Below, piece after piece: positions 4,209 through 62,631 of a stretch of DNA of 64,000 nt (within the stretch, counting starts at the first letter, position 1; every line of letters begins with the position of its first letter). Origin of the DNA: a virus (Duplodnaviria; Caudoviricetes). Under the pieces are notes generated by a model. The model was not told the DNA's origin, ran no database searches, and was given only the letters and a program-made list of their open reading frames with translations. The stretch lies in the IMG/VR virus record IMGVR_UViG_3300013105_000003, positions 61,232 through 125,231 of that record; one strand, written 5' to 3'. The position numbers were made by a program, and so were the translations under genes.

Positions 4209-4325
4209 TATAAATATAGGGAGAATGGCTTCTTCCTGCATTCGCTAGTCAGTGTTAAACTGACAGAGCCAGACCCCTTGGGCAATAAGGTTATGATTGA
4301 TTCGTAGCTGTTCAAGGTCTCACTG

Positions 4326-7253: not shown

Positions 7254-7490
7254 ATGGCTGACGAAAAGACTGTAGATGCTACTCCACCAACTGTGGAGGA
7301 AGACACTAACGTACAGGAAGCTCCTCCTACCGTTACCGATGAGACAAACACAGGCGCAGAGGATGCTCCAGCTGCTGCAGAAGAGCCTGTCAAGCCTGTA
7401 GAGGGTAAGACCCTTGACCAGCTTGCAGAGGAAGATCCAGAAGCATTCTGGCACCCCGGCAGGGTACTATCAGAGGACGACTCTAAGTAA
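7254..7490 (+). CDS. Acidic low-complexity protein
   Basis: GAAAGGA SD, CGATAATA upstream, internal PPTV.(E/D) repeat. Confidence 0.7.
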   Translation: MADEKTVDATPPTVEEDTNVQEAPPTVTDETNTGAEDAPAAAEEPVKPVEGKTLDQLAEEDPEAFWHPGRVLSEDDSK

Positions 7491-7523
7491 TAACCTAATC
7501 CTATACCACTAGGATTAGTCTTA

Positions 7524-51892: not shown

Positions 51893-52597
51893 TTATAGTG
51901 TGCCTTTTTCAATGAGGTTTCGGAATTCTTCGTAAGTAGCTTTACCAGTAAAGCTTCCGTGATTAAATAGAGTATACCCATATGCATACTGACTCCAGGC
52001 AGTAGCCTTATATTGAAGCTCTACTTCAAGCTCCTTGACAGGCTTACCTTGAATTGCAGCATGTCCAAATTCGTGCTGAGCCAGTGCCTGAATGTAATTA
52101 CGGTAACAGTCCTTTTGACGCCATACAAAGACATTAGGAGCATCCTCTAGAGGTACAGAGAAGGACCGAGCATCAAAGAATGCTTCGTTATCACTCCGAT
52201 TAGGCTTATACAGTAGGTTGGTATCTCCCCAACGATGCAGATATTCATTAAAGTGATAAGTAAACATAGATGCAACAACCGATTCTAGCTTTGACTTCTT
52301 AAACCCAAACCATCCTTGAGAATTTGGTCCTTGAAGATCTGTTAGAAGGAAAGTTGCTTCGTCAGATTGAGTATAAGCTAGAACACAACCCTGTGCTGCA
52401 CTGGCTACACTCTCTGTAGCACTAAACATTGCAGCACTGACAGAACCATCAAACGGCTTATTAGCTCCCTTAGTGAAGGTGTGGAAAGCTACTCCATCGA
52501 CACGTACAATAATAGCATTACGTGGGTGGAACTGGTATGATGCTACCTTCTCATATCTTTTCATACGAGCATCTAGGGACTCGTTAAGAGATGTCAC
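51893..52597 (-). CDS. thg1: tRNA-His guanylyltransferase Thg1-like protein
   Basis: RMKRYE, RVDG.AFH.FT, YTQSDE, FDAR, WRQ.DC.RN. Confidence 0.9.
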   Translation of the reverse strand: MTSLNESLDARMKRYEKVASYQFHPRNAIIVRVDGVAFHTFTKGANKPFDGSVSAAMFSATESVASAAQGCVLAYTQSDEATFLLTDLQGPNSQGWFGFKKSKLESVVASMFTYHFNEYLHRWGDTNLLYKPNRSDNEAFFDARSFSVPLEDAPNVFVWRQKDCYRNYIQALAQHEFGHAAIQGKPVKELEVELQYKATAWSQYAYGYTLFNHGSFTGKATYEEFRNLIEKGTL

Positions 52598-53006
52598 TGT
52601 ATTTCCTAACGTTGATGTTTGCTTGTTTGAGCAAGTCTACACCACCAGTGCTCCGGTAGTCAAGCTCATACACTACATCAGATATACCGGCATTTATAAT
52701 CATCCTAGAGCAAGTGTAGCAAGGTGCGTGTGTACACCACATCGTGCATCCTGTCAAGTCTCTAGCTGCAAATACTATAGCATTTTCTTCTGCATGGGCG
52801 GCTGTAGTGCAAGGAGAGTCATCTGTATGAACACAGTGTTCTAGACTTGCAGCATTTCCATTATAGCCGGAAGATACTATACGACCACTCTTGGAAATAA
52901 CAGCACCAACATGCAACCTACTGCATGTTGACCTGGTTGCCCACAACTCAGCTGTAGCCATTAGGATTCCAGCCTCTGTTGGCCTAGTCATTGTAGAATA
53001 ACTCAT
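52584..53006 (-). CDS. dCMP deaminase
   Basis: RSTC.R..VGAVI, GYNG, HAEENAI, PC..C. Confidence 0.9.
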   Translation of the reverse strand: MSYSTMTRPTEAGILMATAELWATRSTCSRLHVGAVISKSGRIVSSGYNGNAASLEHCVHTDDSPCTTAAHAEENAIVFAARDLTGCTMWCTHAPCYTCSRMIINAGISDVVYELDYRSTGGVDLLKQANINVRKYSDIS

Positions 53007-53162
53007 ACTTCTTCTATAATATTGAGTGTTAGGGTAGTACTACCAACATCAAATTGATTGTATCCTCTGCTCGTGCGGACACTAACTGTGTCTGTGTCGG
53101 AAGCTCCTTCAATTAGCTTCTTAAGTTCACTGACAGAAAAAGTTGCCCTCTCGCCGTTCTTC

Positions 53163-53459
53163 TCAATCTTCTTTTGCATTGTTATTTTCATAAACTTCTG
53201 CCTTAAAATCTATTGTCATACCTAGTGTAAAGGCATAATATTTTAATAGGAATATACTACTGTCTCCGTAGTTTTCTAGTCTTTCTATAGAATCTTCTCT
53301 TACCCCTATTTGTTTAGCTACTTGTGATCTAGTTAGACCAAGCTCCATTCGTCTAACTACCAACATATCAAGCATATCATATACATGATCTGTCAATTCT
53401 ACAATGAGCCGGTTCTCTGGGTCGTCAATATCTATACCAAGCAGGATTTCATCACTCAT
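53163..53459 (-). CDS. XRE-family HTH protein
   Basis: L...R..LGLTRSQVA..IGV....I.RLEN. Confidence 0.75.
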   Translation of the reverse strand: MSDEILLGIDIDDPENRLIVELTDHVYDMLDMLVVRRMELGLTRSQVAKQIGVREDSIERLENYGDSSIFLLKYYAFTLGMTIDFKAEVYENNNAKED

Positions 53460-53460
53460 G

Positions 53461-53533
53461 CTCCTCACCCTGGCTTCGATCCAGGACTACCAGATTCAGA
53501 GACTGGTGTGCTACCATGTTACACTAATGAGGA
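53461..53533 (-). tRNA. tRNA-Gln(CUG)
   Basis: Acceptor TCCTCAT/GTGAGGA, anticodon loop CTCTGAA, T arm CCTGG-ATCGAAG-CCAGG. Confidence 0.85.
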
Positions 53534-53537
53534 TTAA

Positions 53538-54120
53538 GCCTGCCGTGATACAGAACGTCTCCCATATCCGCAGGCACTGGACTTTGCACCAGAGCGGCAC
53601 TTTCTAAATGGCTCCTTTATGCACAAGGAGTGACAGGAAGTGGCCCCCACCCTGTTATTTAATGGTGGCTTCCTGCCAGTAGCCAGTTTAGAACTGACTA
53701 CCCTCTTATTTTCTACAAGATTTTATGACTCTCTATAAAGAGCACTCAGTATCTTGTAGAAGCCGGTCCCACCAGAAGGCCATAGATGGGCGTATGAAAG
53801 GGACTTGGAGATAGGATTCTAGACTCCACGCTCCCGTTTTCCCTTACATGAGTGTGCTGTACTCTACCAGTTAACTGTCTTAGAGCCTAAAGCCTTACAT
53901 GGCATCTCCTATTAAGTTCGATCTTGAGGCGCAGCAACTTCTCGGTTACTTCTACTTTAACCTTCAGGATGGTAGCAGCTAGCGTTTGTCTTTTCATCCG
54001 CCGTCAGGCACGTATCCTTTCGGACCTCAAGTTTATTAAGTTATAGCCAGCATAGGAAGATGGCCTTTTCTTCTTGTTTGCCGCAAGAAGTGACTCTTAG
54101 CAAAGACCTACATTGGACTA
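53538..54120 (-). ncRNA. About 580-nt ORF-free, highly structured RNA (or RNA array) between tRNA-Asn and tRNA-Gln
   Basis: Nested stems CTTGAGG/CCTCAAG, GGAGAT/ATCTCC, TTCTACAAGAT/ATCTTGTAGAA, TGGCAGGAAG/CTTCCTGTCA, GCCTGC/GCAGGC. Confidence 0.6.
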
Positions 54121-54121
54121 G

Positions 54122-54212
54122 CAGGCATAATAGGAATCGAACCTATAACGGGGACTTTTACCCACTTGGTTAACAGCCAAGCGCAACACTTGCCAATAGT
54201 TGCCATATGCCT
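54122..54212 (-). tRNA. tRNA-Asn(GUU) with long variable arm and 5-bp D stem
   Basis: Acceptor AGGCATA/TATGCCT, CTTGG-CTGTTAA-CCAAG, extra arm GGG-TAAAAGT-CCC, T arm ATAGG-TTCGATT-CCTAT. Confidence 0.85.
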
Positions 54213-54258
54213 TTAAATGCGACTTCTCCCGCAGGAACGCACATGTCGCAAAGCGTCG

Positions 54259-54333
54259 TGGATCATCTCGGACTCGAACCGAGAACCTGCGCATTAAGAG
54301 TGCGTTGCTCTAGACCAATTGAGCTAATGATCC
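54259..54333 (-). tRNA. tRNA-Lys(CUU)
   Basis: Acceptor GGATCAT/ATGATCC, D arm GCTC/GAGC, loop CTCTTAA, T arm CTCGG-TTCGAGT-CCGAG. Confidence 0.92.
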
Positions 54334-54558
54334 AATACTCTATTCTTTTGTAGTTACTAGTTTACCACACTGACTTACTTCTGTCAACCAAGTCCTAGAT
54401 TTTCTACTTCGTCAGGACTAAGCTGCTCCGTTGATTCATTGTCATACCAATAATCATCGTTATTTCTCTCTACTCTGAGAATATTTCCACTTTCATCTGT
54501 GTATACATTCTCAGTGTACAGGTACTGGCGAACTTGCAAGTATACTATCTTTTCCATG

Positions 54559-54642
54559 CTCTCCTGGGTGGACTTGAACCACCGACCCATGCCCGAGGCT
54601 AGTTTCCTAGGCAGGCTGCTCTACCGACTGAGCTACAGAAGA
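54559..54642 (-). tRNA. tRNA-like RNA with no anticodon (loop replaced by a GAAA-tetraloop hairpin)
   Basis: TCTTCTG/CAGGAGA acceptor, intact D and T arms, GCCTG-C-CTAG-GAAA-CTAG-CCT-CGGGC. Confidence 0.75.
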
Positions 54643-55540
54643 CCCTTATTAAGTTATTAGTTACACTTTAGAGGTAGCCCTCATCTGTGTCGAACTCTTC
54701 CAGCTCAACACCTAGCTCTTCTGCGACCTCGCCAGCGTTAGCGCCACTCTCCCACATACTAGTGAGAGGTAGATCAAAGATATCACAATAATTCTCATCT
54801 GCGTCAATACCGAAGTACCTATTTAGAAAGTCTAGAATCTCCCAGCCTGCGTTATAGCCACTATCTGAGTAGTACTCATTGTAGGAAATGATGAACCACG
54901 TTCCATCAGGAGTAACTGCTCCAAACTGAGCAAGAACCTTATTGATAAACTCTTCTAGCTCAGGCTCATCATCAGTACGATTTATAGTACCATAATCCAT
55001 CTGGTGCTTAAATACATACTCTTGAATTTCTGTTACTTTACCATACTGTGGGTGGATTGACATTCCCATTTGTAGAGTCTTTCTTTAGGGTAGTGGAAAG
55101 GGACGTTGCATTAGGTCTATAGCGTCTGCCTTATTCATAAATCTGTAGGTTCCTACTTGCTCAACCGTTGTATTGTCAAGGTCTGTTACGTTGGCTTGCC
55201 ACGTAGTATAAAACCTGTCACCATTGTTATTAAGAGGTTGGGAAGTTACAAACTTAAAGATACCCTTTTCAATTTCAAATAAGCCTAGACTCTTCTCAAT
55301 GTGAATATCAAATAGAGTTCGTATTTCCTTATCAAAGAAAGAGCATCCTCCGAAAGTGACTTTCTTCTCAAGTCGATGGAACTCTAGGTACTCGTCAGTC
55401 ATTTCTTCTTTAGTCCTCTATCGAGAGCCTTACCGCAATCTAAGCAGGCTTGTCTACGGATCTTTCCCATAGCTGACATTCTTGCTATAATCTCATCACC
55501 ATATATGTTCCTGGTGCGTAGATGCTTACAGAAGAACAGC

Positions 55541-61799: not shown

Positions 61800-62440
61800 T
61801 GGAGAGTGTCTACTGTCTTACAAGGAATTCGCTTCGCTCATGCTGTTTCCTTATAAAGTTTTTAAGTGTCTCCCTCCCTCCCCTAGTCCTTCTGTTCAAG
61901 AGTATCTATTGATCTATAACTAGGTACTACTGTCTGTAGCTGTTACTAGTGGTCTAGAAGATACTCTATGTCTTGAACGTGTCAGTTGAGTTACTACTTC
62001 AGTGTGTGCCAGCGTGGCTCTCTGAACAACCAGCTGGAGGGGAGGACGAGTTATATTGCTATAACTCTACTAAGGTTACTGATGTAACCGTTTCAGTCTC
62101 TTGTGTGTCTGCCTTTCACCGCTTCCGGTGCCTTGGATAAGGATTCCTTAGTAGTAGACCTGTAAGAGTGGAGTGGCGAGTTCCGACTACCTGATGTAAG
62201 TAATAAATTAACATAGACACTGAAGCAACTATGTAACTCTCTGCGTTATGGCAGGACTTATCATCATTACTAAGGAAACGGCGCTCTTGGTTCGCAGCAA
62301 GCGTCCTGCTCTGCCAGTGGGTTAACCATGTTCCGCAGGTTAGCGTTTATACCGCCCGTTCTGTAAACGTCGTCCCCGTCAGTTCCCGGTTGGACCCTTA
62401 CAGACCTATCCACAGCAGGAAGGTGTAAGAACCTTCATAC
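61800..62440 (-). other. ORF-free structured region (large ncRNA or replication origin)
   Basis: Many nested inverted repeats; CGATAATA promoter motif on the minus strand at 62443-62450. Confidence 0.5.
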
Positions 62441-62631
62441 CTTATTATCGCACACTTCAGGTCCAGATGCAAGAGAACTCCCGCGCCATTCTACCTGCAG
62501 CTGTGGTTACAGGGACGGCGCGGGAGCCTCTACATACATATTATCGTATCTTTTCCTTACTACTTAAGTCTACCACATCTAGAACGATAATATGAGTAGA
62601 CCACCTTATTTCTTTCTTGGAGATGTTATTT

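Follow-up and report, generated by a model that had tools for sequence, protein, structure and literature searches.

A non-coding spacer of 587 nt with a cluster of stable 3' hairpins among the tRNA genes of a phage: a possible composite sequence

The stretch of 587 nt between the genes of tRNA-Asn and tRNA-Gln on the minus strand of the studied phage genome (53534-54120) is an ORF-free gap, and its 3' part carries a cluster of stable hairpins; neither the non-coding gap nor the hairpin cluster is in doubt. The stretch is tentatively interpreted as a composite non-coding spacer of a tRNA transcription unit, and not as one large ornate RNA. A large structured RNA, as proposed in a preliminary description of this DNA, is contradicted by the folding statistics over 60% of the length.

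The studied window of 64,000 nt comprises bases 61232-125231 of an IMG/VR phage record of 125,231 bp, which has terminal repeats of 123 bp. The gene content, as judged from protein similarity, is that of an actinobacterial-type phage. The best cultured matches of its Thg1-like tRNA-His guanylyltransferase are Mycobacterium Omegavirus phages and Rhodococcus phage Weasels2, and a Mycobacterium-phage VG64 family protein and an Rpf-type transglycosylase are also encoded. Minus-strand genes near the spacer are densely packed under genetic code 11.

The 5' neighbour of the spacer is the gene of tRNA-Asn(GUU) (54121-54212, minus strand), found by ARAGORN; it has a long class II-like variable arm, and its score of only 25.9 bits with the tRNA model of Rfam falls short of the gathering score (29). 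The 3' neighbour, tRNA-Gln(CUG) (53460-53533, minus strand), was found both by ARAGORN and with Rfam, as were tRNA-Lys (54258-54333, minus strand) and a tRNA-like gene (54559-54642, minus strand). A promoter-like site, TTGACA-17-(TG)TAAACT, with 10 of 12 matches and an extended -10 element, is located on the same strand at 54359-54387, upstream of tRNA-Lys, tRNA-Asn, the spacer and tRNA-Gln, in that order. No terminator-like site was found within 53000-55200. The gene of an HTH protein (53163-53456), assigned by a domain match, starts 78 bases downstream of the spacer. The 3' end of tRNA-Gln contains the motif GAGGAG (GGUGAGGAG, 53456-53468), which appears to be the ribosome-binding site for this HTH regulator of 97 aa with the ATG at 53456. 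Since the 3' end of the tRNA doubles as the ribosome-binding site, tRNA and mRNA would be physically coupled on one transcript.

Absence of a credible ORF from about 580 nt, noted in the preliminary description, was borne out: under code 11, no ORF of at least 40 aa lies wholly inside 53534-54120, and the longer ORFs listed for the region merely clip the ends of the spacer from the flanking tRNAs. No gene was called in the spacer by the source annotators. Six-frame translation through stop codons gave no Pfam match, and thus no Pfam remnant, and a single noise-level match to PHROG (E 0.0099); recoding of TAG as glutamine or of TGA by code 4 gave no credible frame. Small ORFs of the spacer starting with ATG, the only start codon considered, were absent from a collection of 15 billion predicted proteins in an exact look-up, while the same collection does contain the products of two small genes nearby (133 aa and 57 aa). 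It is hardly credible, accordingly, that the spacer encodes one or several very small proteins. The candidate, an ATG frame of 36 codons (53997-53887), does exist on the transcribed strand, but the spacing of its ribosome-binding site is not credible, its product of 36 aa is absent from the predicted proteins searched and has no protein family match, and read-through with TAG as glutamine leads to an implausible extension.

The MFE of the whole spacer on the minus strand is -194.5 kcal/mol, and 16 of the 174 pairs in this structure are G-U pairs. Compared with shuffled sequences, the minus strand gave z values of -3.44, -4.41 and -3.56 in three runs and the plus strand -1.46; 12 coding control windows of the same length gave values from +0.9 to -1.9. 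The folding signal is unevenly distributed along the spacer. For the 5' 359 nt (54120-53762), z was -0.01, and 46 of 100 shuffled sequences folded equally well; for the 3' 228 nt (53761-53534), z was -4.51 on the sense strand, a value reached by none of 200 shuffles. The antisense strand of the 3' part gave z -3.47; its energy is -69.2 kcal/mol, as compared with -86.1 for the sense strand, which is 17 kcal/mol stronger because several stems use G-U pairs.

The excess folding of the minus strand over the spacer taken as a whole (z about -3.5) therefore stems from the 3' 228 nt alone, and the consecutive multibranch domains of the preliminary description are not borne out in the 5' 359 nt. Among the six domains delimited there, 53710-53761, 53611-53701 and the hairpin within 53538-53592 fold well above chance, whereas the three 5' domains are at the level of chance; 53923-54031, folded alone, gave z -2.2. 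The 5' 'multibranch domains' are what any sequence of equal composition gives. A single RNA of about 580 nt made of such domains is not supported, since three fifths of it show no folding signal above shuffles. Testing the parts separately changed the verdict on the spacer, and a general caution follows for the MFE drawing of an ORF-free spacer, which looks 'ornate' even at the energy of a shuffled sequence. Thermodynamic z-scores, for their part, sometimes miss genuine structured RNAs. Two details described earlier are present: the GAAA tetraloop, at 54018-54021, and the repeat CATGTAAGG, which occurs at 53842-53850 and 53893-53901. About 0.66 pairs of exact 9-mer repeats are expected by chance in 587 nt by our own estimate, so the repeat carries no weight.

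Other ORF-free gaps of the phage gave z values of -2.3 to -6.0; being equally or more structured, they indicate that hairpin-rich spacers are the norm in this genome. The ORF-free region 61800-62600, with z -6.0 and -4.7 on the minus strand and -1.7 and -3.3 on the plus strand, exceeds the spacer in this respect.

The MFE structure of the whole spacer is closed by a long-range helix between spacer bases 13-28 and 526-542 with pair probabilities of 0.93-1.0. This pairing of the 5' end with the 3' end, the z value of the whole spacer, its size near the 581-nt average of ROOL and its adjacency to tRNAs in a phage (PMC5737381) are the features expected if all 587 nt formed a large ornate RNA of a new GOLLD/ROOL-like class with built-in tRNA modules, excised by tRNA enzymes. 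The hairpin insertions capped by GAAA in a tRNA-His-like piece of the spacer and in a neighbouring anticodon-less tRNA-like gene, both described below, would fit such a molecule as well. It is nevertheless quite improbable: the 5' 359 nt fold no better than shuffles, a closure of at least equal length was reached by 16 of 150 shuffles, and the searches for known families and for homologues, which could have provided covariation, gave nothing. A MITE bounded by the closing helix was also considered and dropped, as neither a target duplication nor a second copy was found.

No known RNA family was matched by the spacer. Scanning of 1.5 kb and of each spacer half with 4227 Rfam models, both at the gathering score and at E <= 10, gave only noise within the spacer. 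The ROOL model (RF03087, gathering score 99.1 bits) had no match at E <= 10 in the 125-kb genome; the control genomes of this search contain no ROOL, which limits the weight of the negative result. GOLLD appeared in no Rfam scan, by gathering score or at E <= 10, and no family of RNase P RNA was found at E <= 10. The motifs AAAGUCC and GGCUUA, resembling those of RNase P RNA, were noticed by eye about 40 nt apart at the 3' end of the spacer, the former being part of another helix; in bacterial RNase P RNA, CR-I and CR-V, about 280 nt apart, form P4. A tmRNA was detected neither by ARAGORN, even at a lowered threshold, nor with Rfam. No Rfam family of group I or group II introns was found, and ARAGORN with introns allowed gave no split tRNA across the spacer, both flanking tRNAs of which are complete. 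ARAGORN with lowered thresholds and in mitochondrial mode gave nothing credible in the spacer. The failure to match this sequence to GOLLD, ROOL, tmRNA or RNase P, reported in the preliminary description, is thus upheld by the Rfam scan, the ROOL model and ARAGORN.

No homologue of the spacer was found in any of the collections searched. Search in INPHARED with blastn in 'distant' mode gave no match for the spacer and only generic tRNA matches for the operon. In IMG/VR, searches through the flanking proteins and the sliding clamp gave nothing, and the search through Thg1 gave one distant locus. Among 80 loci from the Thg1 alignment, there was no nhmmer match and no tRNA-flanked gap of at least 300 nt. 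With a covariance model of the hairpin module, no match was obtained in 1.27 Mb of Thg1 loci or in five whole related records, and in the phage's own genome only the module itself was retrieved. A paralogue of the spacer is absent from the phage genome. The double CATGTAAGG pattern gave 40 chance matches in IMG/VR, none of them alike, and the pattern of the anticodon-less tRNA-like gene gave no matches there. Exact words of the spacer were absent from JGI metagenomes (a 23-mer) and from GTDB genomes (a 22-mer), and the clamp alignment detected no relatives in these two collections. Three to five relatives of the phage were found in protein searches, all in Logan/ENA assemblies, by the clamp (P0122-P0124, identity 62-73%) and Thg1 (P0002/P0003, 60-62%).

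The 3' part is made up of five hairpins on the minus strand. Hairpin 1 (53761-53711) consists of a perfect stem of 11 bp and an inner stem; hairpin 2 (53702-53678) has 11 bp, including two G-U pairs, and a T-loop-like sequence UUCUAAA; it is followed by hairpin 3 (53677-53632) and hairpin 4 (53630-53612), in which CUCCUU is paired with AAGGAG. Together, these four form a module of 150 nt (53612-53761) with z -6.93, reached by none of 200 shuffles; the antisense strand of the module gave z -5.0. Hairpin 5 (53538-53575), of 16 bp with three G-U pairs, gave z -3.72, again reached by none of 200 shuffles, and stops 4 nt short of the first base of tRNA-Gln. Hairpins 2, 3 and 4 abut with 0-1 nt between them, and the main stems of the cluster have pair probabilities of 0.93-0.98. 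The arms of the hairpins do not recur elsewhere in the phage genome. The abutting hairpins, the G-U pairs and the stronger folding of the sense strand give the cluster the look of a designed RNA domain rather than that of separate terminators or operators.

Comparison of tRNA leaders in the genome showed a comparable hairpin which ends 5 nt before tRNA-Pro, with z -2.80 (7479-7523, plus strand; the corresponding leader of tRNA-Gln is 53534-53578, minus strand). Hairpins before tRNA-Trp (4281-4325, plus strand) and tRNA-Asn (54213-54257, minus strand) were not significant. A hairpin 4-5 nt upstream of a tRNA may be a recurring design of pre-tRNA leaders in this phage. Spacer bases 419-480 (53641-53702, minus strand) weakly resemble the 3' half of the adjacent tRNA-Gln (rank 48 among 8246 windows), with the words GGTAGTC, CTGG, GAAGCCA and GGGTG in the same order; two palindromic insertions create the hairpins of this stretch.

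The main rival to the composite spacer is that the 3' 150-230 nt (53761-53534) form a discrete, stable, trans-acting small RNA released by RNase P from the tRNA precursor, the 5' part still being a relic. This is rather unlikely, although several properties of the cluster are in line with it: z of -6.93 over 150 nt and -4.51 over 228 nt, abutting hairpins with high pair probabilities, G-U pairs which favour the transcribed strand, and a 3' end which RNase P would set and the 16-bp hairpin would shield. Against it, shuffles are far surpassed by the antisense strand as well (z -3.5 to -5.0), neither sequence searches nor the covariance model gave a homologue, the cluster is without a promoter of its own, and other gaps of the phage are equally structured.

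The good folding of both strands of the 3' part, the perfect inverted repeat of 11 bp and the start of an HTH gene 78 bases downstream could also be accounted for if the inverted repeats act as DNA, for instance as operators of the HTH protein or as a site of replication or recombination, with RNA folding as a by-product. Such a role is improbable, slightly more so than that of the giant RNA discussed above. The arms are repeated nowhere else in the genome, the spacers between them (3-29 nt) differ in each hairpin, three of the five stems contain G-U pairs, which are A-C mismatches in DNA, and the antisense strand is the less stable one by 17 kcal/mol.

The 5' part of the composite spacer contains, at spacer bases 60-152 (53969-54061, minus strand), a sequence match to tRNA-His of the same phage and its leader. 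When the genome was searched with the spacer, the best non-self match was the cluster of tRNA-His, tRNA-Arg and tRNA-Gly at genome positions 678-907, in the same sense; nhmmer with tRNA-His as the query matched spacer bases 99-132 with E 0.013 (in 1.2 kb). In the MAFFT alignment, spacer bases from about 60 to 152 have 35 of 46 identities with the leader and the gene of tRNA-His, with one insertion of 17 nt. The first block (12 of 14 identities) runs from the last part of the leader through the 5' acceptor strand into the D stem; the second block, after the insertion, spans the D arm together with the 5' half of the anticodon arm (23 of 32). The T arm is deleted and is followed by a 3' acceptor-like strand and ACCA, while the 17-nt insertion in the D arm forms the GAAA hairpin. 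The pseudo-cloverleaf has an acceptor-like stem of 6 bp, and its z is -1.18.

Statistical support for this match depends on the gap costs. Each of nine phage tRNAs was compared with 8246 non-tRNA windows of the genome, and the sense-strand window of the spacer was rank 1 for tRNA-His under two scoring schemes; allowing for 16 spacer windows and nine queries, p is about 0.02. The next genome window followed closely (131 versus 128 and 36.5 versus 33). In the same scan, the spacer reached rank 48 for tRNA-Gln and rank 37 for tRNA-Trp, under one scheme each, and antisense windows were unremarkable. The gapped score of tRNA-His against shuffled spacer sequences gave p 0.0025 at lenient gap costs and 0.10-0.14 at strict ones; under the scheme 5/-4/-10/-1, the score of the tRNA cluster against the spacer exceeds those of all 500 shuffles and of all of about 300 random genome segments. 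The similarity to a specific tRNA is thus collinear and beyond chance, with a significance that varies with gap costs. The tRNA covariance model revealed no additional tRNA in the genome at E <= 10, leaving this piece undetected, and a generic tRNA HMM found nothing in the spacer. As a functional tRNA, bases 60-152 fail, with the T arm absent and no match to the tRNA model. They probably represent a decayed copy of tRNA-His, which suggests that the tRNA array of the phage was larger or differently arranged in the past. That all of the His-Arg-Gly cluster was copied and then decayed was considered and rejected: only tRNA-His is specific, and tRNA-Arg and tRNA-Gly are not the best matches.

A weak, generic tRNA-like stretch was noted at spacer bases 225-335 (53786-53896, minus strand), with a D-arm-like GGTAGAG and a T-loop-like GTCTAGAATCC. 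Its scores are raised against several tRNAs with no specific best partner, and z is -1.34.

The intact tRNA-His gene is located at genome positions 678-751, 114 kb away from the spacer, and encodes its own CCA end, which other tRNAs of the phage do not. The Thg1-like tRNA-His guanylyltransferase gene (51893-52597, minus strand) lies 1 kb downstream of the spacer with its tRNA-His-like relic. In the tRNA-like gene at 54559-54642, labelled 'tRNA-Pyl cta' by ARAGORN, the acceptor, D and T arms are intact, and the anticodon loop is replaced by an extension capped by CUAG-GAAA-CUAG. A weak Rfam match to YrlA (Y RNA-like) was found at 54589-54727 (20.4 bits, E 0.26); a Y-RNA/Ro module was dropped, as a TROVE/Ro60 gene is absent from the phage. 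The 12-mer ATAACTTAATAA lies directly before the tRNA-like gene and again in the spacer, where it overlaps the tRNA-His-like piece, and AACTTAATA has three copies within 740 nt as compared with seven genome-wide; the sites listed for these repeats are 54646-54657 and 54033-44 on the minus strand, and also 53910-53918. As a promoter, ATAACTTAATAA was rejected, no -35 box being evident.

The same locus contains the anticodon-less tRNA-like gene, the unusual tRNA-Asn and the Thg1-like enzyme of tRNA repair. In this setting, the spacer, or at least its 3' 230 nt together with the tRNA-His-like piece, might be a new lineage-specific structured RNA built partly from tRNA modules with GAAA-capped insertions, excised from the tRNA precursor and acting as a decoy or scaffold against tRNA-targeting defences of the host. 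This is considered unlikely.

For the composite spacer, we infer the following transcription, cleavage sites and role of the hairpins. Transcription would proceed from 54387-54359 across tRNA-Lys, tRNA-Asn, the spacer and tRNA-Gln and continue into the HTH gene. The 5' segment of about 360 nt would be degraded sequence, of which at least bases 60-152 would originate from a copy of tRNA-His that lost the T arm, had its anticodon stem broken and gained the insertion of 17 nt, forming the GAAA hairpin by happenstance. Because the spacer lies within a tRNA transcription unit, cleavage by RNase P at tRNA-Gln and processing of the 3' end of tRNA-Asn would release it; these steps are drawn from standard tRNA maturation. 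The RNase P cut at the 5' end of tRNA-Gln would create a 3' end at a distance of 4 nt from the 16-bp hairpin, and cleavage of the RNase Z type behind tRNA-Asn, which lacks an encoded CCA, would leave the 5' end of the spacer free, unprotected and unstructured. Excision by the flanking tRNAs, expected in the preliminary description, thus finds support in the position inside the tRNA transcription unit, the cleavage being that predicted above.

The hairpins would most likely be cis-acting, as blocks to exonucleases and as folding insulators. They would allow each neighbouring tRNA to fold on its own and would delimit a stable 3' fragment, and the 5' part would be degraded. Hairpins in leaders and spacers of tRNA precursors block exonucleases in bacterial RNA processing. 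Against the composite spacer stand the modest significance of the tRNA-His match, the domain-like look of the hairpin cluster, the structured RNAs that z-scores can overlook, and the fact that 360 nt of junk are seldom kept in dense phage genomes.

Among known systems, large RNAs of the ROOL and GOLLD classes were the precedent named at the outset. ROOL is 581 nt long on average, and both RNAs are often found near tRNAs, in phages or prophages, with functions still unknown (PMC5737381). The spacer is similar in its size of 587 nt and in being flanked by tRNA-Asn and tRNA-Gln in a phage. It differs in that the models do not match it, that 60% of it folds no better than shuffles and that no second example was found; the likeness to this precedent is limited to size and tRNA adjacency. 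A giant RNA at this locus would, if true, extend the GOLLD/ROOL class to a new host group; the evidence does not support it.

Resemblance to pre-tRNA leader hairpins is seen in the stable stems 4-5 nt before the RNase P sites of tRNA-Gln and tRNA-Pro, although five hairpins in a row over 230 nt far exceed a usual leader. Like tRNA pseudogenes and relics, the 5' part aligns collinearly with a tRNA gene of its own genome and with the leader of that gene; the D loop bears an indel, the anticodon stem is broken and the T arm is lost, and the piece lies in a tRNA cluster in the same orientation. In contrast to them, the statistical backing is modest (p about 0.002-0.02 once the number of queries is taken into account), and acceptor-like pairing of 6 bp, the ACCA tail and a neat GAAA hairpin are kept, which may point to a remodelled tRNA-like RNA.

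T4 RNAC and RNAD, roughly 120-140 nt long, are the nearest phage case of non-tRNA sequence in a tRNA unit, released by the tRNA-processing machinery. These RNAs (species 1 and 2 RNAs) come from the tRNA region of T4, and their role is still unknown (PMC3014915). The T4 species were shown experimentally, whereas the spacer described here, of 587 nt and with no sequence relation to them, is known from its sequence. As non-tRNA sequence within the tRNA operon of a phage it is an orphan case, and a small stable RNA of the T4 RNAC/RNAD type is a reasonable candidate identity for its very stable hairpin cluster.
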